From sequence record PP400778: DNA of 64,000 nucleotides; one strand, written 5' to 3'. The notes beneath the pieces were generated by a model, which made no database searches, was not told where the DNA came from, and was given only the letters and a program-made list of their open reading frames with translations. Both the position numbers and the translations under genes were made by a program. This stretch comes from Escherichia phage FL15. How positions within the stretch are numbered: position 1 is the first letter of the stretch; the number at the start of each line of letters is the position of its first letter. Below, piece by piece: positions 12,289 to 51,858 of this stretch.

Positions 12289-12299
12289 CATTTTTAACA

Positions 12300-12328
12300 A
12301 GCCGATCCTCGTGGTCGGCTTTATTTTT
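12300..12328 (+). terminator. intrinsic terminator after gene 35
   Basis: Hairpin AGCCGATCC-TCGT-GGTCGGCT followed by TTATTTTTTA; the same stem recurs at 23316 and 61868. Confidence 0.7.
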
Positions 12329-21699: not shown

Positions 21700-21740
21700 T
21701 GATGGGAGTATCTTACTACTCCCTTAATCCGGTGTCAACT
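21700..21740 (-). promoter_or_regulatory. early promoter cassette with palindrome (PeSL-like)
   Basis: Minus strand GTTGAC (21734-21739), then palindrome GGGAGTA-N6-TACTCCC (21704-21723) enclosing a TAAGAT -10, upstream of ATG 21675. Confidence 0.5.
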
Positions 21741-22244: not shown

Positions 22245-22280
22245 GGGAGTATCTTACTACTCCCTTATCTTTACGTCAAC
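22245..22280 (-). promoter_or_regulatory. early promoter cassette with palindrome (PeSL-like)
   Basis: GTTGAC (22275-22280) plus GGGAGTA-N6-TACTCCC palindrome (22245-22264), near-identical to the 21700 copy. Confidence 0.5.
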
Positions 22281-22529: not shown

Positions 22530-22559
22530 TTTATTTCCTCCAGTTCGTTTCGGTATGGG

Positions 22560-22592
22560 AGTATAATACTACCGATGACCTTTGGCGTCAAC
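22560..22592 (-). promoter_or_regulatory. early promoter cassette (PeSL-like, degenerate palindrome)
   Basis: GTTGAC (22587-22592), -10 TATTAT/TATACT inside GGGAGTATAATACTACC, conserved leader CCCATACCGAAAC. Confidence 0.45.
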
Positions 22593-23307: not shown

Positions 23308-23337
23308 AATAAAAAAGCCGACCACAAGGATCGGCTT
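23308..23337 (-). terminator. intrinsic terminator
   Basis: Minus strand AGCCGATCC-TTGT-GGTCGGCT + TTTTTTATTT; same stem as the terminators at 12300 and 61868. Confidence 0.7.
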
Positions 23338-43706: not shown

Positions 43707-46385
43707 TTAAATGTCAAACAGGTCTGTAAGAGATGCCACTTTTTCATATTGCAGCTTTGCAGCCGTGGTAATGTTCTCCAGTGGTTTGACGAAAGTCTTA
43801 TTAAACAACAAAGGCCAGTCTAACCACTTTAACACCTTTGATTCAATTTCTGGAGGAATACGAGTACCGGACAACCAACCAAAACAGATTTCTCCAAACG
43901 GATTTCGATCTTTCAGCGGTACAATCATAACCTTCTCGCCTTCACGAATCGGATCTAGTCCGAATTTTCGAGCATTACGATTATAACACAATACACTCTT
44001 AACCGCATACGGACAACCCTTAATCGGATACCCGTTTGAATCGCTGTATTTCTGTAGGTTGTTTGCAGATGATACCGCAGCAACATCAAGATAGTCAAGT
44101 TTTCTAAATTCTTGCTCAAAAATACCGTAGTATTCCTGCAACGACTCTTCACCTTCCTGCAACATACGGCGAATACATTCTTTCAGTGATTTCTGACATG
44201 CTTTAGGGGTGGAGCTACGTTGCGTTTCCAAGCCCATGATTTTTAGCTTAGGTTCAGCAAAGCGCGTTCCTTCCATATCCCAAACATTAAGAGCATAACG
44301 CTTTTTACCAGTCCAGAATCCACCGATACCCGCAGATTTCAATGGAGGACCAGCAATTGCCTCACGGTCCATAAACATCAAGTGCTCATAGTTGTTCATG
44401 TACTCGCATAACTCGCGATATCCCTTGTCGATAATAGGTTCCATTCGATGTTTACCGAAATTATCAAGGAAGTCAACAAGTTTTTCGGTATCGTCGAAAC
44501 GGTCTTCCCCGCCAACCTTATCAACAACATTGTTAACCAGCACATAAACGGAGTCAGTATCACAATAACGAACATATGCAAAATCGGTTGTTCCACAAAG
44601 CTCGTTTAAGTATTCATTAATCTTACGCTCAATCCACTGAATTGCAAGCTGACCAAACAAGGTGATCGCACTAGCGTTACGGAGATCATAAAAACGGAAT
44701 TTAGGATTCCCCAACGCACCATAAAGGGAGTTGATCAAAACTTTACGAGAAAGCTGGTTTGTATTGCACAAGATCGACTCGTCTTTACATTCTTCCAGCA
44801 ATTTCTCTAAGGCATCTTTACTTAATTCAGAAAGCATCGATTTAAACGCTTCATCAAAGTCGTGACGCACTTCAACGCTATAGTTAATGGTTCCTCCATA
44901 AACATGATTTTCATCGTGTAGAATCGCTTTACAGAGTTCAGCATTGCGATCACATGCCAACATCATGTTTTTGTACTGCTTACGCTGATCGAATACCTTT
45001 TTAATCTCAATCGGTACGATACCGTGAATATCTTTTCTATACATCCATCCGTTAGGCGAGCAAGAATACTCATCACTCGGACGTGGTGCAGTTTTATTGA
45101 TATACTCGTGCATCGGTGCAGCATCAAAAGATCCAGCGATTGTTTCAGGCGAAATATTAACCTGTCGAATAATAGATGGGTACAGACTTGTTAAGTCAAA
45201 GCTCATCATCCAACGGTAAGCATTCGGCACAGGTTCTTTTACGAATGCGCCTGGATACGTCTGCTTAGGCTGTATCTTATTTTCCGGTACTACTTTACCC
45301 TCAGCTTTCAGAGATCCGAAGATAATAGCATCCCACACTTTCATCGGGTTATAAACATGGTTAAATTTAATCTTTGCATAGAAACATAGACTATACACCA
45401 GATCGATAAATCCACGCTTTTTATCAATCGCCAGAACACGATCAACGTCGCCGATGTTATAATCGATGTAAAGTTGATGGTTGTCATCACGCAATTTCTT
45501 TAACGGACCATCATAATCAACCTTACCGATTCCTGTCTCATATTCAGCAACATAATCTAATGCATATGTTGGTTGAGTCGTAAAGCTAAATTTCTTGTAC
45601 AGGTCAATATAATCAAGGCTTTCGATCCCCATGATCGTAAATGCTTCACGCTCGTTGCCAAAATCATCCTGTGAGATTCGGGATTTAATCTTACCGCACG
45701 GGCTTAGACGGTTAGCGGTTCTACTTCCGAACTTATTACTGATACGTTTAATGATATATGGAATATCGAATGTTTCTGTGTTCCAGCCAGTGAAACCAAC
45801 GGGTCGGTTTTCCTCAAAGAATCGGATGTATTCTAACAGCAATTCATCTTCTGTGTCATAGACGTTATAAACAACGCGCTCTACAATATCAGGTCGAAGA
45901 ATAGACTTGCTAGATTCCCAGATTTCACAGTTTTTTCCTTTCAAATCAAATACAAAGAAACGATCATGTACGGAATCATAATGCGTAATTGCATCGATAG
46001 GATATTTCGCTTCTTCTGGTTTAGGAAATTCTGGGGCAGTGACCTCGATATCAACCCATGCTACACGGATTTTATTTCGGTCATATCGAATCTCGCCTTT
46101 ATACGTATCAGACAGATAGGAGATGATAAAATCATCCATCCCTAGCGCCTCTTGCCCCATTTCTCCCATCTTTTTACGCCATTTGTTGGCCTCGTTCATA
46201 GAGGGGAATTTTTTAGCAATGCAAGGCTTGCCATAGATATCTTTATAATTCGTAACCATACCAGGCGCGGCATGATGAAATAAAGTTGGCGTATATTCAA
46301 CGTAACGCTCTTGTTCTTGTCCAGCATCATCAATATAACGCTCGTAGATCTTATCACCTACTCGCTCACATGACAGAAAATACAT
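43707..46385 (-). CDS. 43: DNA polymerase gp43 (family B)
   Basis: Start MYFLSCERVGDKIYERYID (AAGGAG SD); exo and pol motifs (FD.E, YNI.DV, SLYPSII, DTDS, KKRYA) match T4 gp43. Confidence 0.95.
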   Translation of the reverse strand: MYFLSCERVGDKIYERYIDDAGQEQERYVEYTPTLFHHAAPGMVTNYKDIYGKPCIAKKFPSMNEANKWRKKMGEMGQEALGMDDFIISYLSDTYKGEIRYDRNKIRVAWVDIEVTAPEFPKPEEAKYPIDAITHYDSVHDRFFVFDLKGKNCEIWESSKSILRPDIVERVVYNVYDTEDELLLEYIRFFEENRPVGFTGWNTETFDIPYIIKRISNKFGSRTANRLSPCGKIKSRISQDDFGNEREAFTIMGIESLDYIDLYKKFSFTTQPTYALDYVAEYETGIGKVDYDGPLKKLRDDNHQLYIDYNIGDVDRVLAIDKKRGFIDLVYSLCFYAKIKFNHVYNPMKVWDAIIFGSLKAEGKVVPENKIQPKQTYPGAFVKEPVPNAYRWMMSFDLTSLYPSIIRQVNISPETIAGSFDAAPMHEYINKTAPRPSDEYSCSPNGWMYRKDIHGIVPIEIKKVFDQRKQYKNMMLACDRNAELCKAILHDENHVYGGTINYSVEVRHDFDEAFKSMLSELSKDALEKLLEECKDESILCNTNQLSRKVLINSLYGALGNPKFRFYDLRNASAITLFGQLAIQWIERKINEYLNELCGTTDFAYVRYCDTDSVYVLVNNVVDKVGGEDRFDDTEKLVDFLDNFGKHRMEPIIDKGYRELCEYMNNYEHLMFMDREAIAGPPLKSAGIGGFWTGKKRYALNVWDMEGTRFAEPKLKIMGLETQRSSTPKACQKSLKECIRRMLQEGEESLQEYYGIFEQEFRKLDYLDVAAVSSANNLQKYSDSNGYPIKGCPYAVKSVLCYNRNARKFGLDPIREGEKVMIVPLKDRNPFGEICFGWLSGTRIPPEIESKVLKWLDWPLLFNKTFVKPLENITTAAKLQYEKVASLTDLFDI

Positions 46386-46417
46386 AATATAAACTCCTTC
46401 ACTTACGAAAGACACTC

Positions 46418-46446
46418 ATTATAGGGGAATCGACTTAGTTTGTCAA
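46418..46446 (-). promoter_or_regulatory. sigma70-type promoter upstream of gene 43
   Basis: Minus strand TTGACA (46441-46446), 17-nt spacer, TATAAT (46418-46423). Confidence 0.55.
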
Positions 46447-46467
46447 TACCCCTATCCCATCAGTATC

Positions 46468-46830
46468 TTATCGCCCGATCTGATATTTCTCGATCAGCGT
46501 CCACTCTTCTTTCTGTTTGAAAGACAATACACGGAAATTATTAACTTCGGTAGTTTCAAAATCACTATCAATCAGGGTACACAGATTCCACTGCGCCAGA
46601 AGTTTTGCAATGTTATTACGGCGTAATTCATCTTCCCACGTCATTTTAACACTACGACCATCTAATTTCAACAACTCCTTGAAATGAACGATGTAATAGC
46701 GCCCTTTCTTCTGGAGAATATGACAAGACTGATACAGCGTCTTGTCTCGATTGTTGGCAATGCCGCAGCGGGTTAAAGTTTCCTTAATTTTAAGGAAGTT
46801 TTCAGGACTAATCAAATTAATTTCAATCAT
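46468..46830 (-). CDS. regA: translational repressor RegA
   Basis: 120 aa; MIEINLISPENFLKIKETLTRCGIANNRDKTLYQSCHILQKKGRYYIVHFKE matches T4 RegA almost residue for residue. Confidence 0.95.
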   Translation of the reverse strand: MIEINLISPENFLKIKETLTRCGIANNRDKTLYQSCHILQKKGRYYIVHFKELLKLDGRSVKMTWEDELRRNNIAKLLAQWNLCTLIDSDFETTEVNNFRVLSFKQKEEWTLIEKYQIGR

Positions 46831-46831
46831 T

Positions 46832-47410
46832 TTACCACCTTTCTATAATCTTTTTAAGTCGTTTCCTTTCTGTCTGATTCTTAGTAACACCCGCCAAAAG
46901 TTCATCGGTCGCATACGGTTTAATGTGCTTCAATAACTTGTCCATATATCCCTTTTCATTAGCCAAATCGAGATAAAACCGGGCGTCATCCATATTTACA
47001 CAATATGCTTTCGCCACTGCCATTAAAACCAATTTTTGGTCCAATTCTTCTGTTAGTTTAGCCCATTTACCGTATCGTTTCCCCTTAGAAATACTCTGTA
47101 AGAGATAATCAAAATGCATTTGATCTGGGAGGCCATGACCGATTAAATTCATCACATACGCGCTATATAGGCAATCTGCGTGCTGGGAAAGAGCGGTGTT
47201 AATCCATCTCTGGTTATATGCAGAATTGTTTCCCACATTAACGCGCTGTTTATCTAAGGTGATATGATCCATCAGAGCAAATAATGCATTGTCGGTTTTC
47301 TCGGTGAATGTATCCGCTAATTCAGACACCTTTTCCCAATCACGAGAGCGCCATGCAATTTCATGCTCGTTTAATTGTGTATCATCTTCACCGAAAAATT
47401 GACCTAACAT
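46832..47410 (-). CDS. 62: clamp-loader small subunit gp62
   Basis: 192 aa; matches T4 gp62 (QLNEH..AW.S.DW, Y.MNLIG.GL, KGKRYGKWAKL, QLKK). Confidence 0.9.
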   Translation of the reverse strand: MLGQFFGEDDTQLNEHEIAWRSRDWEKVSELADTFTEKTDNALFALMDHITLDKQRVNVGNNSAYNQRWINTALSQHADCLYSAYVMNLIGHGLPDQMHFDYLLQSISKGKRYGKWAKLTEELDQKLVLMAVAKAYCVNMDDARFYLDLANEKGYMDKLLKHIKPYATDELLAGVTKNQTERKRLKKIIERW

Positions 47411-48384
47411 TATACGAACTCCAATTCAACCATTAATTGCATTAACAAAAAGACAATGTGAATCTCTTTATCAGCCGCGTGTGCAAACATCTGATTATTT
47501 TCACCGATAATCTCAGTGAGACGAATAATAGAAGCTGGCTTAACTTGAGTATACAACTCATTATAAAGTTTCTTGACAAATTGAGCGTATGTATTGGTAT
47601 ATCGCGGCGCAAGTTTACGCACATTAGCAAACTGTTTAGTTTTAAGTGCTTCCACCACATCGGTTACTTCGGTATTGCTACTTTCGATAACCATGCTCAA
47701 TACGCCAGCATCAATTTTACCATGTTTAGCGTAGCGGTCCAAAAGTTTCATTACGCGTCGGAAGTCTGGGAAGTTCTGTTTAACCAGTTCCGCTAATACG
47801 CGCATTTCTTCTACTGGCACACCTTCTTTATCAAGAATTGCTTTACACCGGACGATCATTTCTTTCATCATGCGAAGCTGATCATCTTTAGTCGGAGATC
47901 CAAACGTTATGGGGTCAAATCGAGATCGTAACGCTGGGATAATACCTTCTAGATCGTTTGCTGTGATAATGAATGTCACATTGTTTGAGTATGCCTCAGA
48001 GAAACTACGCAAGTGTCTTTGAGCGTCAGCCAACCCCGCTCGGTCATACTCATCGATAATAACAACTTTGCCTTTTTCTCTTTTTTCTTCATCGAGTGAT
48101 ACACTCTGCGCAAAGCGTGTAATCTCATCGCGGATAAAATCAATCTTACAATCTGCGCCGTTAACAAACAGATAATCAACACCCACATCTTCGCAAAGCG
48201 CCTTAGCAACGGTTGTTTTACCAGTACCCGGCGATGGGCTATGCAGGATCATAGAAGGGATTCGGCCTTGCTTAACAATCTGCGCGAAGATCTTTTTATC
48301 TGCTTCCGGCAGAATACATTCAGAAATTGATTTCGGACGGTATTTCTGTTCCCACTGAAACTCATTTTCATTAACACTCAGCAT
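47410..48384 (-). CDS. 44: clamp-loader large subunit gp44 (AAA+)
   Basis: Start MLSVNEN with GAGGTG SD; Walker A SPGTGKTT, DEYD, SRFD; overlaps gp62 start (ATGA). Confidence 0.95.
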   Translation of the reverse strand: MLSVNENEFQWEQKYRPKSISECILPEADKKIFAQIVKQGRIPSMILHSPSPGTGKTTVAKALCEDVGVDYLFVNGADCKIDFIRDEITRFAQSVSLDEEKREKGKVVIIDEYDRAGLADAQRHLRSFSEAYSNNVTFIITANDLEGIIPALRSRFDPITFGSPTKDDQLRMMKEMIVRCKAILDKEGVPVEEMRVLAELVKQNFPDFRRVMKLLDRYAKHGKIDAGVLSMVIESSNTEVTDVVEALKTKQFANVRKLAPRYTNTYAQFVKKLYNELYTQVKPASIIRLTEIIGENNQMFAHAADKEIHIVFLLMQLMVELEFV

Positions 48385-48417
48385 ATAATCACCTCTCACA
48401 AATTACATCATTAAAAC

Positions 48418-48438
48418 GGGGAGTATTTTATACTCCCC
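48418..48438 (-). promoter_or_regulatory. intergenic stem-loop between genes 45 and 44 sharing the GGGAGTA palindrome
   Basis: GGGGAGTA-TTTTA-TACTCCCC; same arms as the palindromes in the 21700 and 22245 promoter cassettes; loop reads TATAAAATA on the minus strand. Confidence 0.4.
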
Positions 48439-48450
48439 ACAAACATTATA

Positions 48451-49137
48451 TTAGTCGGTGTAGCTGGAGTCAAGGTCACACGCGATCATATAAGATACGG
48501 TTTCACTTGCCAGCCATACAGCCTTACGGCGAGTGAAGCTCAGTTTGTAATCGCCGAAGTCAGTAGCAACCAGTTTCATGTTATCTTTACGAATAAAGAA
48601 ATGGAAGTCTGCGGTTCCGGTATATTCGCCCATATCAAGACAAAACATCTCATTAGGATTATTTTTGTCAATCTCTTCCCAACCTTTGATCATCAGACGA
48701 CCATCAATCGGAAGAAATTCAAGGCGATCCACTTTAAGCTGATTGCTCATTTTCATAAGCTGTTTCAGATCGTCGTTGCTCAGTTCGTAATCTACATCGC
48801 TTGCAGGTGGAGTAACTCGGCCTTTCGGTGATACGATAGCAGCAGCACTAGCACCAGGATAATTAATTTTCAGACGATCATTAGACACACGAATGTTTCC
48901 GGTGCGGTTATCAACCGTAATATCTGCTTCATCGCCCACCAGATTCAGAATGCCCAAGAAAGAGTTAAGATCATAGATCCCAATTTCGTGTTCCAGTTCT
49001 TGATTCAGAGTCGCTTCACCATATACAACGTTTGTCATGTTTTTGGTGATCAGGACGTTTCCTTTTTTCAGGATGATACCTGGGTTAATAGCGGAAAAGT
49101 TTTTCAGGATAGCAATGGTTTCTTTAGTCAGTTTCAT
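48451..49137 (-). CDS. 45: sliding clamp gp45
   Basis: 228 aa; matches T4 gp45 (LKNF..IN.GI.LK, IYDLN.FLGIL.LV); AAAGGTGA SD. Confidence 0.95.
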   Translation of the reverse strand: MKLTKETIAILKNFSAINPGIILKKGNVLITKNMTNVVYGEATLNQELEHEIGIYDLNSFLGILNLVGDEADITVDNRTGNIRVSNDRLKINYPGASAAAIVSPKGRVTPPASDVDYELSNDDLKQLMKMSNQLKVDRLEFLPIDGRLMIKGWEEIDKNNPNEMFCLDMGEYTGTADFHFFIRKDNMKLVATDFGDYKLSFTRRKAVWLASETVSYMIACDLDSSYTD

Positions 49138-49167
49138 CAAATCACCTTTATCATGTTAATCAATTAA

Positions 49168-49545
49168 TTACGGGTTTACTTCGTGCTCATTTTGAATCTT
49201 TAGCATTCTTTCGATAAATTTTTTCTCGGCTTCCTTGTCGGATGAGTGAGTATACTTCAATCCAATGTAAGCTGTCAAGTATTGTTGCAGAGCATAGACA
49301 GTAACAGGATTCTTTGCGGTCTTTTTGCCGTCGAGATATACCAGATCACCACGAACATCAAACGCAAGTTTACGACGAATCACATCATCAACAAATTTAT
49401 CTAGGACAAAATACCACTCAATACATTCTATCCCGTGACGGTAGTTCATTACATCATTATCTTTGATATAGTCAAACGGAATATGACATAATTTACGATT
49501 TTGTAGGATGAATAGCATTTGTTCTTTTAAGCTCATACGTTTCAT
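49168..49545 (-). CDS. hypothetical protein at the rpbA position
   Basis: ORF downstream of gene 45; start at MKRMSLKEQ; identity with RpbA not verified. Confidence 0.45.
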   Translation of the reverse strand: MKRMSLKEQMLFILQNRKLCHIPFDYIKDNDVMNYRHGIECIEWYFVLDKFVDDVIRRKLAFDVRGDLVYLDGKKTAKNPVTVYALQQYLTAYIGLKYTHSSDKEAEKKFIERMLKIQNEHEVNP

Positions 49546-49549
49546 TCTA

Positions 49550-49927
49550 TCACTTCCCATCAGCAATTGCGATCAGACGAGTTACTACTACGCTAGCGGC
49601 TTCAATCAGCAGTTCATCAGTGTCAATCTGATAACCCTTTTCGAGAATATCTTTACCTCGAATAGTTTTAGCGCCTTTAGCAATTGAATCATCGTAATAC
49701 TTGCGCATTGCCGCGATCCATTCTTTTTGCACCATATCATCAATATGAGCGTACAGTTCAAAGCGTGCTTGCTGCGGGATAACCTTCATTTTAGCTTTCT
49801 CGCTTTCTGGCATTTGTAGTACCCACGCTTTACGGATCTTGTTCATTGCTCGGTCAAATTCGAGACTGGTTTTCTTGTTCTGAATGTCTGCTACAGTAAT
49901 TTTAGCCAGGTTTGCGGAAGTAGTCAT
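49550..49927 (-). CDS. hypothetical protein
   Basis: ORF from ATG 49927 (MTTSANLAK...) with GGAG SD. Confidence 0.5.
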   Translation of the reverse strand: MTTSANLAKITVADIQNKKTSLEFDRAMNKIRKAWVLQMPESEKAKMKVIPQQARFELYAHIDDMVQKEWIAAMRKYYDDSIAKGAKTIRGKDILEKGYQIDTDELLIEAASVVVTRLIAIADGK

Positions 49928-49958
49928 AATATTAATCTCCAAAAATAAAATCAGTATA

Positions 49959-50189
49959 TCACGTTCTAAAGTTTGTTGCAACCCCAGCATCAGGGTAATC
50001 AAGTTTATCAAAGTTGGGGACCAGCATAAACTCATGATGACGACAAGACAACATTTTTGTTATGTCTGCATCGCTGTATATGCTGTTTTTCATGTCCCCC
50101 ATACTAACTACATATTCTTCACCGGAATATAGATTGATTAAGGTATACAATTCTAACTCCGGCTGCGTTACTCTGTCAAATGTTAACAT
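49959..50189 (-). CDS. hypothetical small protein
   Basis: 76-aa ORF overlapping the gene 46 stop. Confidence 0.45.
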   Translation of the reverse strand: MLTFDRVTQPELELYTLINLYSGEEYVVSMGDMKNSIYSDADITKMLSCRHHEFMLVPNFDKLDYPDAGVATNFRT

Positions 50190-51858
50190 TCATTTCAGTG
50201 AATCGCCCACGTTTAACCATCTTGAGATGACGGCTAAAATCATCAGGGTTATGGCCACGATGGCTGATAATATACACGTTATCATCTAACTTGTCAATGA
50301 TGGAATCAAGTGCTTTTACGCCCTGAACGTCCGTAGCCCCATCATAAATTTCGTCGAGTACCAACAAAGAAATATTAGTACCAGATACTTTACCAGCAAC
50401 ATCACGCCATGTAAAGAGCATCGCAAGGTCAATACGTGCTTTTTCGCCTTGACTGAATGATGTATACGAAAACGATTCCCGCCCCCGTGATTTGATTGTT
50501 TCGTTAAACTCTTCATCTAGCGTAAAGATATAATCCGCTTCCATGATATCAAGATAATACGCAATCCGATCATTGAAATATGGAATATATTTCTTGACGA
50601 TAGACGCCTTAACACCGGAATCCTTCAACATTTCTGTTACAAATCCACGGTGATATTTTTCAAGAACTAGCTTTGATTTTTCATTAGTAATCTCTACCAG
50701 TTCGTGTTCCAGTTTAGCAAGTTCTTCGGAATTGTCAACCCTTTCTTTTTGTAATTCCTGAATTGCTTTCTGGATCTGTTTAGCCCGACCTACAGATGCC
50801 GTTAAATTCGCTCTCTGTGACTCTATAGCGCGTTTAATTTCCAAGACCTTAGTTTGTGCTGTCTGGAAAGAATTGGCCTTCTCCGCGTATTCTACGCGTT
50901 TCTCGTCAATCAGAGACAGTTTATGTTCTGCTTGTGCTTTTTGTTCGCGTACAGCTTGATCATTACCTTGAATAATCGGTTGTGTGCACGTAGGACAGAC
51001 CCCGCCTTTCTCATGCATATGAATAACACGGTCAAAGTTCTGGATCTGCGCACCAATCTGAGCAATAGCAGTATTGATTTTAGTCAATGCCGCGCTAGGA
51101 TCTTCCGGCATAACAACCGACAATAGCTCATCTGTCAAGCGTGTTTCTTCCGCTTTAAATGCTTTAGCGGATTCTACTTCTTTCTCGTACATATTCTGCA
51201 AACGCTGTAGATTCTCGGCACTAGCCTTGCTAGCGTCCTCTATGTACTTTTTATGAGTATTGATTTGTTGCTGAACGTGATTAGCTTTCATTTCCTGCAT
51301 TTGGATATTCTGGGTTATCTCGCGCACATACGCTTTATTCAGTTTATCCATTTCGCCTAGCGTAGCAATATCAAGCAAATCCTCGACCAGCTTACGGCGA
51401 CCCGCTGCCGGAAGACTCATAAACGGAACATAACCAGCAGTGCCTAAAACAACGATCTGTTTAAAGCTGGCTAGGTTCATGCCTATGATACCTTCAAAAT
51501 ATTCCTGAAAGTCTTTGGTGCTTGCGCTCTCGTCGATCTTTTGACCGTCGCGATGCACTTCGAATACTTCCGGTTTTTGACCACGTTTGATATAAAACTC
51601 TTTCCCGTCCAGTTCAAACCAGACTTCGACTAACAGTTTCTTTTTGTTGACGCTGTTAATCAATTGGCCTTTCTTGATACTACGAAACGGTTTACCGAAC
51701 AACACAAAGCAAAGCGCCTCGATCATTGTTGATTTACCAGCACCGTTAACACCAGTGATTAGTGTCTTTTTGAATCCGTCTAGCTGAATCTCTACAGGTT
51801 CAGCACCCACGCTCATTATATTTTGATAGCGCAAGGTTTTAAAATTTAACTTTGCCAT
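50176..51858 (-). CDS. 46: recombination nuclease subunit gp46 (Rad50/SbcC-like ATPase)
   Basis: Start MAKLNFKTLRYQNIMSVG; Walker A GVNGAGKST, central coiled coil with CPTC hook, C-terminal FTLDEEFNETIKSRGRE.FSY.SFS.GEKARID and LLVLDE match T4 gp46. Confidence 0.95.
   Translation of the reverse strand: MAKLNFKTLRYQNIMSVGAEPVEIQLDGFKKTLITGVNGAGKSTMIEALCFVLFGKPFRSIKKGQLINSVNKKKLLVEVWFELDGKEFYIKRGQKPEVFEVHRDGQKIDESASTKDFQEYFEGIIGMNLASFKQIVVLGTAGYVPFMSLPAAGRRKLVEDLLDIATLGEMDKLNKAYVREITQNIQMQEMKANHVQQQINTHKKYIEDASKASAENLQRLQNMYEKEVESAKAFKAEETRLTDELLSVVMPEDPSAALTKINTAIAQIGAQIQNFDRVIHMHEKGGVCPTCTQPIIQGNDQAVREQKAQAEHKLSLIDEKRVEYAEKANSFQTAQTKVLEIKRAIESQRANLTASVGRAKQIQKAIQELQKERVDNSEELAKLEHELVEITNEKSKLVLEKYHRGFVTEMLKDSGVKASIVKKYIPYFNDRIAYYLDIMEADYIFTLDEEFNETIKSRGRESFSYTSFSQGEKARIDLAMLFTWRDVAGKVSGTNISLLVLDEIYDGATDVQGVKALDSIIDKLDDNVYIISHRGHNPDDFSRHLKMVKRGRFTEMNVNI

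Follow-up and report, generated by a model that had tools for sequence, protein, structure and literature searches.

A PeSL-family stem-loop at the gene 45-44 junction of an RB49-like phage: a probable leaky terminator joined to a predicted restart promoter

The palindrome at 48418-48438, between the sliding-clamp gene 45 and the clamp-loader gene 44 of an RB49-like phage, folds into a stable stem-loop that recurs in the PeSL early-promoter cassettes of the same genome, and it stands at a position where every T4-like genus that we sampled has a hairpin. Taking sequence, fold and conservation together, we consider it probable that this junction unites a leaky intrinsic terminator, which would also stabilise the 3' ends of gene 45 transcripts, with a promoter restarting transcription into 44-62-regA. 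The element is no new regulatory site: it already stands in public records as a terminator and as hypothetical promoters, and the family to which it belongs has been published.

The stem-loop and the promoter at the end of gene 45

Positions 47400-49200 of the window (the whole stretch of 64,000 nucleotides that was analysed) are 98.5-99.5% identical to 58 annotated Krischvirus genomes or records (RB49-like, Straboviridae), with phage kaaroe as the closest match; by sequence, the window is a Krischvirus, an RB49-like T4-type phage. The gene order on the minus strand is 46, 45.2, rpbA, ORF031c, 45, 44, 62, regA, 43, and both Gp45 and Gp44 are annotated in RB49, GEC-3S and G2494. An Rfam search of 46000-50500 (E<=1) returned no match.

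The plus strand of the palindrome (48418-48438) reads GGGGAGTATTTTATACTCCCC, and the minus strand, written as DNA from 48438 to 48418, reads GGGGAGTA TAAAA TACTCCCC. The hairpin lies 13 nt past the gene 45 stop and 33 nt ahead of the gene 44 AUG (48384) and is present in both the MFE and the centroid folds, with a stem of 8-9 bp including five G-C pairs, a loop of 3-5 nt and a dG of -13.1 kcal/mol for the 21-nt hairpin alone or -14.6 kcal/mol with one flanking base per side (Table 1). The motif TATAAAATA covers the loop together with the two inner stem pairs. On the gene-sense strand the hairpin is followed by GUUUUAAUGAUGUAAUUUGUGAGAGGUGAUUAU and then by the gene 44 AUG. A U-run is found on this side only, the stem being followed by ACAAACAU on the opposite strand, and the U-tract is short, with only four consecutive U residues and a G ahead of them.

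As a GC-rich hairpin with a stem of 8-9 bp and a tail of U residues, lying past a stop codon, the element resembles a canonical E. coli Rho-independent terminator, but only one of three prediction methods calls it. GEC-3S, G2494 and other Krischvirus records annotate the hairpin as 'terminator' (ARNOLD, -13.1), whereas TransTerm, which lists '44<--45' terminators for RB69, RB43 and Aeh1, gives none for RB49 or 44RR (Nolan et al., 2006, PMC1524935 supplement), and a simple terminator scan of the window did not call the hairpin either, its tail being borderline.

The hairpin begins 6 nt past the TATAAT of a predicted sigma-70-type promoter whose -35 hexamer TTGACT lies inside the last gene 45 codons and whose -10 hexamer abuts the gene 45 stop, and which is annotated in RB49 (AY343333) as 'hypothetical early promoter'. 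Against a matrix derived from 41 promoters of PeSL type, the two hexamers score 16.2 bits, a typical value inside the PeSL range of 13.5-19. The upstream 20 nt (TTATATGATCGCGTGTGACC, gene 45 coding) score -19.0 bits, which is as low as chance sites inside genes, as against about 0 to +18 in typical PeSLs; the promoter thus lacks an AT-rich UP region. By a back-of-envelope estimate, a promoter match of this quality would turn up in any one stretch of 30 nt with a chance of about 1e-3. It does not appear in the HMM promoter list of Nolan et al. (2006), from which the perfect-consensus promoter of gene 43 is also missing. The predicted transcription start is at about the hairpin's first G, which would place the terminator hairpin on the promoter's own transcripts.

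Alleles of the junction were compared in 12 representatives of the 58 related Krischvirus records. Throughout the 12 representatives, TTGACT-17-TATAAT is invariant and the stem GGGGAGT/ACTCCCC is unchanged, except that SSG23 is without the outermost C. The tail TTTTAATGATGTAA is invariant as well, preceded by G, A or T, and a G>T change after the stem gives a U-run of five in some Krischvirus genomes. Loop length, loop sequence and closing pair (A-U, G-U or absent) vary, and every allele folds with a dG of -10.6 to -14.6 kcal/mol. The loop is TATAAAATA in the window type (three records), TGTAAATA in the RB49 type, which is that of the majority of genomes, and TATAAAAC in 011D4, E26 and ELT3. 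In ELT4 and an ECD7-like IMG/VR contig, the loop matches the T4 late-promoter box TATAAATA perfectly; by identity, this class comprises 5 of the 58 records, two sequences of which were looked at directly.

The gene 44 leader is nearly invariant among the relatives and reads UUUUAAUGAUGUAAUUUGUG directly after the hairpin (48385-48417, minus strand). Its UGAUGUAA resembles the T4 RegA SELEX consensus ..UUAUGUAA / aaAAUUGUUAUGUAA (PMC3014915), and GUUUAAUGAU likewise follows the junction hairpin of phage NHEP36; judged from this resemblance, the motif may be a candidate RegA operator of gene 44.

Table 1. Features of the 45-44 junction, related hairpins in the window and the corresponding hairpins of other T4-like phages
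Feature	Position	Strand	Sequence or basis
Stem-loop of the 45-44 junction	48418..48438	-	5' arm GGGGAGUA 48438..48431; loop UAAAA 48430..48426; 3' arm UACUCCCC 48425..48418
U-rich tail GUUUUAAU	48410..48417	-	directly 3' of stem
Sigma-70-type promoter, predicted: TTGACT (48473..48468), 17 nt spacer, TATAAT (48450..48445)	48445..48473	-	11/12 consensus
Gene 44 leader and translation initiation region UUUUAAUGAUGUAAUUUGUGAGAGGUGAUUAU	48385..48417	-	SD GAGAGG 48397..48392
Gene 45, sliding clamp, 228 aa	48451..49137	-	ORF 48454-49137: Pfam gp45-slide_C + DNA_PPF
Gene 45 stop codon TAA	48453..48451	-	sequence
Gene 44, clamp-loader large subunit, 324 aa	47410..48384	-	ORF 47413-48384: Pfam Gp44_lid + Gp44_C + AAA; annotations
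PeSL hairpin GGGAGUAGUAAGAUACUCCC, same arms	21704..21723	-	loop + 3' arm form -10 TAAGAT; TTGACA 17 nt upstream
Second PeSL hairpin, identical to 21704-21723 copy	22245..22264	-	pattern search, census
Degenerate PeSL hairpin GGUAGUAUUAUACUCCC, same arm family	22557..22573	-	census
T4 45-44 hairpin			AGGGC-UUCG-GCCUU
Asfd_1 45-44 hairpin			AUGCGGG-UUUC-GGCCCGCAU
NC-G 45-44 hairpin			AGGGAGGAAAUUCCUCCCU
FRZ284 45-44 hairpin			GGGGC-UUCG-GCCCC
NHEP36 45-44 hairpin			UGGAGGAGAAAUCCUCCA
TG1 45-44 hairpin			UAGGGAC-UUUG-GUCCCUA
Octan 45-44 hairpin			UGGGCC-UUCG-GGCCCA
leB 45-44 hairpin			AAGGGGC-GUUAA-GCCCCUU
phiAS5 45-44 hairpin			GGGGAGG-CUUGA-CCUCCCC
TCU-VP03 45-44 hairpin			GGGGC-GUAACA-GCCCC then UUUUUU

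Relationship to the PeSL cassettes

PeSLs were described for RB49, in which 51 of them were counted, and for phi1 (Arbiol et al., 2010, PMC2839356). In a PeSL, a strong sigma-70-like promoter with AT-rich sequence ahead of it is combined with a stable stem-loop; five placements of the stem-loop with respect to the promoter occur, one of which is immediately past the -10. The 45-44 junction is like these cassettes (PMC2839356; Comeau et al., 2014, PMC4122927) in having a sigma-70-like promoter and a stable G-run/C-run stem-loop between two genes, with the stem-loop downstream of the -10 as in one of the five published layouts, and its hairpin matches the most frequent class of PeSL hairpins in the same genome almost exactly. 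It is unlike them in its location, which is flanked by two essential genes of the conserved replication core instead of adjoining an ORFan in a hyperplastic region, and in its -10-like loop without a -35 partner.

In the window, the pattern GGGAGTA-N(3-12)-TACTCCC occurs three times (21704-21723, 22245-22264 and 48419-48437) as against 0.00 expected from 100 shuffles, and the bare heptamer GGGAGTA ten times as against 3.3 expected. The preliminary description had reported the GGGAGTA palindrome between genes 45 and 44 with the same arms as in the early-promoter cassettes, which is confirmed by these three copies; one correction is needed, as an extra G-C pair makes the 45-44 stem one pair longer than that of the cassettes. 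The upstream hexamers of the two cassette copies, TTGACA and TTGACG, stand 17 nt ahead of TAAGAT, a -10 hexamer made up of the loop plus the base with which the 3' arm begins.

A census on the whole genome, assembled from the window and the remainder of kaaroe, found GGGAGTAGTAAGATACTCCC and close variants in at least eight PeSLs (four exact copies and at least four close variants), with identical arms in at least six PeSLs. Between the 45-44 hairpin and one PeSL copy, GGGAGTAGTAAAATACTCCC (kaaroe 67889-67908), an inserted G is the only difference, and 19/20 positions agree, loop included. The GGGAGTA/TACTCCC class has a fixed layout, TTGACA-N9/10-GGGAGTAG-TAAGAT-ACTCCC-AUC...-SD-AUG, and no U-run follows its hairpins, whereas the 45-44 copy has the extra G-C pair and a (G/A/U)UUUU tail. 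Judged by these matches, the 45-44 hairpin is the same stem-loop module as that of the PeSL cassettes, and the two would have a shared origin by common descent or gene conversion. G-run/C-run stems are frequent among the hairpins of this genome, and the arm identity could in principle be a chance resemblance of no functional or historical meaning; against the shuffle expectation, the 19/20 identity including the loop and the stem kept among relatives, we give this next to no credence, and the shuffles together with the PeSL census effectively refute it.

As to a regulatory site shared by the replication operon and the early cassettes, which the preliminary description had also suggested, the shared part is the PeSL stem-loop module itself, while a shared protein site is not needed to account for it. 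In sister PeSL classes the layout is retained and the arms show compensatory changes; at pair 4, eight cassettes have A-T, five have G-C, three have T-A and one has G-T. It is thus the pairing, not the arm sequence, that is maintained. A palindrome acting at the DNA level, be it as the site of a dimeric protein, as a cruciform or as a recombination site common to PeSLs, would fit the fact that several PeSLs share the arm sequence and not just the pairing, as well as the recombination of PeSLs with each other reported by Arbiol et al. (2010, PMC2839356). However, the different arms of the other PeSL classes point to structure and not to sequence recognition, the junction hairpins of other genera are unrelated in sequence, and recombination of the 45-44 site with distant PeSLs would delete essential genes. 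We regard a DNA-level role as very improbable and reject the protein-site reading, since pairing is kept over sequence and the other genera have unrelated sequences.

By homology to the PeSLs, the 45-44 loop TAAAAU corresponds to the sigma-70 -10 hexamer (TAAGAT/TAAAAT). No -35 partner was found at a distance of 16-18 nt ahead of TAAAAT or TATAAA in the loop (TAATAT/ACTAAT; TAATAT at 17 nt), so that the loop itself is not a sigma-70 promoter. In the '-10 in loop' PeSLs of kaaroe and the window, transcripts would start just past the 3' arm, and only RNA reading through from farther upstream would contain the hairpin; the 45-44 promoter, in contrast, is predicted to start transcription at about the hairpin's first G.

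Among the PeSLs assayed by Arbiol et al. (193/192, 206/205 and 211/210), PeSL211/210 had a stem-loop that reduced lacZ placed downstream of it to the same extent as rrnB T1 did (Arbiol et al., 2010, PMC2839356). The phi1 stem-loop upstream of ORF210 (ORF212/210 junction), presumed to be that of PeSL211/210, reads GGGGATCGGTGATCCCC followed by UUAUAAUA and is neither more stable (-10.4 versus -14.6 kcal/mol) nor more U-rich than the 45-44 hairpin. By analogy, this likeness to a stem-loop that was presumably tested makes termination at the 45-44 hairpin plausible.

Two further elements of the genome belong in this context. At the regA-43 junction (46418-46460, minus strand), a perfect TTGACA-17-TATAAT upstream of gene 43 lies inside a stem AUAGGGG...CCCCUAU with inner UUGAC/GUCGA; here the hairpin of a PeSL encloses the -35, as noted for gene 43 by Arbiol et al. 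(2010, PMC2839356). Another repeated stem-loop family consists of the nearly identical 23-nt hairpins AAGCCGATCCTCGTGGTCGGCTT and AAGCCGATCCTTGTGGTCGGCTT, in opposite orientations at 12299-12321 (plus strand) and 23315-23337 (minus strand).

The loop and late transcription

The preliminary description had placed the loop close to the late-promoter core, and the RB49 GenBank record labels the loop GTAAATA 'hypothetical late promoter'. A gp55-type late promoter in the loop would drive late expression of the clamp loader, and late transcription in T4 needs clamp loading. A perfect TATAAATA is present in ELT4 and in the ECD7-like IMG/VR contig that stands for the five-record class, and some single deviations are tolerated in T4, where perfect boxes account for 32 of the 50 late promoters, an A at -13 is found in 9 and nearly all the rest have one deviation, with AT-rich sequence downstream (PMC2988020).

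However, the window allele TATAAAAT/ATAAAATA deviates from TATAAATA at two or more positions, and only the ELT4/ECD7-type allele stays within a single deviation; with four loop versions on an invariant stem, the late motif is not conserved. The motif is followed by CTCCCCGU, and the 8 nt downstream of it, CTCCCCGT, are GC-rich, as against mostly AT-rich sequence at the 14 exact TATAAATA sites of the genome, 11 of which lie within 60 nt upstream of an ORF. Of the variant forms, TATAAAAT has 16 occurrences in the genome, of which only the present one and another, overlapping a different late promoter, precede an ORF; TGTAAATA occurs twice, never upstream of an ORF. Instead of AT-rich sequence and a late gene, the motif has GC-rich sequence and the clamp-loader gene 44 downstream. 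Nolan et al. (2006) predicted no late promoter at the 45-44 junction, and the homology to the PeSL -10 already accounts for the loop. Late-promoter function is in our judgement improbable, and the reading of the loop as a late-promoter site is not supported: the deviations, the variable loop, the GC-rich downstream sequence and an allele that is not used upstream of late genes all speak against it.

In the divergent region between the baseplate genes kaaroe_1 and kaaroe_2 (kaaroe, L025 814-833), TATAAAATA overlaps a perfect TATAAATA of the opposite strand and adjoins a ACTAAATA box, so that the motif can also be generated incidentally where late promoters stand back to back.

A dual use, to which we give a slightly smaller chance still, would have the RNA attenuate early transcription leaving gene 45 and the DNA of the loop evolve as a gp55 late promoter. 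If this were true, expression of the clamp loader would persist into the late period, in which it has to load gp45 for late transcription to be activated, and the loop polymorphism (TATAAATA in some genomes, TGTAAATA in most, TATAAAATA in the window) would tune late 44/62 expression.

The junction hairpin among T4-like genera and its probable role

The junction was compared in 11 genera, i.e. Krischvirus and ten other T4-like genera (T4, Biquarta-, Dhaka-, Jiaoda-, Teguna-, Lazarus-, Pseudoteven-, Chryson- and Schizotequatrovirus and the unclassified NHEP36). A gp45 search of IMG/VR had returned only two near-identical contigs, and wider diversity was reached via tblastn and fetched records. 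The synteny 45-44 is intact in all ten others, whose spacers of 41-91 nt each contain a GC-rich hairpin; with Krischvirus included, a strong hairpin in sense orientation occupies the spacer in 11 of 11 genera, with unrelated stem sequences. Each of these hairpins beats at least 93% of mononucleotide shuffles, and the combined p according to Fisher is about 5e-12, a value limited by the 200 shuffles per sequence and to be read with the relatedness of the lineages in mind. In most of the other genera, a clear U-run is absent after the hairpin.

The C(UUCG)G hairpin of T4 and the predicted '44<--45' terminators of RB69, RB43 and Aeh1 (PMC1524935) are like the Krischvirus element in orientation, in their short GC-rich stem, in their U/A-rich tail and in position, a few to about 30 nt past the gene 45 stop and ahead of the gene 44 ribosome-binding site. 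Their stem and loop sequences are unrelated to it, T4 having a UUCG tetraloop and a stem of 5-6 bp; the Krischvirus version of the junction hairpin is borrowed from, or common to, the PeSL family. A perfect TATAAT is found within 5 nt past the 45-44 hairpin in T4 (L004 5895-5905), Asfd_1 (L016) and NC-G (L017), directly after it in T4 and Asfd_1, so that TATAAT stands before the hairpin in Krischvirus and after it in these three; no convincing MotA box or -35 partner was found for the post-hairpin TATAAT of the three.

For the Krischvirus junction, we propose that the palindrome acts once transcribed, as a stem-loop in the RNA at the gene 45 3' end. It would serve there as a leaky terminator (attenuator) for gene 45 transcripts coming from upstream, e.g. 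from the promoter at 49278, and would also shield the 3' end of these transcripts. In consequence, the sliding clamp would be made in excess over the clamp loader 44/62, and TTGACT-17-TATAAT would restart transcription into 44-62-regA. A terminator hairpin together with a near-consensus restart promoter would make the junction a composite terminator/promoter of the PeSL kind. Since the U-tract is short and the U-run unclear in most genera, a leaky terminator and/or a 3'-protective hairpin is likelier than a strong terminator.

The hairpin could also act purely after transcription, in RNA stability or processing without termination, either as a barrier to 3' exonucleases after cleavage or as a 5' stem-loop guarding the 44-62-regA mRNA from 5'-end-dependent decay by RNase E. 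What is kept across the 11 genera is the hairpin and not the U-tract, and the conserved role may hence be RNA stability or processing rather than termination; besides, a start at about the first stem G, as predicted for TTGACT-17-TATAAT, would put the hairpin at the extreme 5' end, and 5' stem-loops stabilise E. coli mRNAs. However, the invariant UUUU right after the stem and the G>U changes that lengthen it fit termination, programs call a terminator here, and the transcription start is a predicted one. A purely post-transcriptional hairpin therefore seems unlikely to us, albeit less so than the late-promoter and DNA-level readings, and the combination of leaky terminator, 3'-end stabiliser and restart promoter remains the preferred reading.

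In this reading, a small piece of the replication-operon organisation in RB49-like phages would be explained, and two conflicting annotations of the same element would be corrected, RB49 having it as 'late promoter', GEC-3S and the G-series phages as 'terminator'. In Krischvirus, the conserved hairpin slot behind the clamp gene holds the genome's own mobile PeSL stem-loop, which suggests that in regulatory hairpins of this kind the sequence turns over while position and, probably, role are kept.
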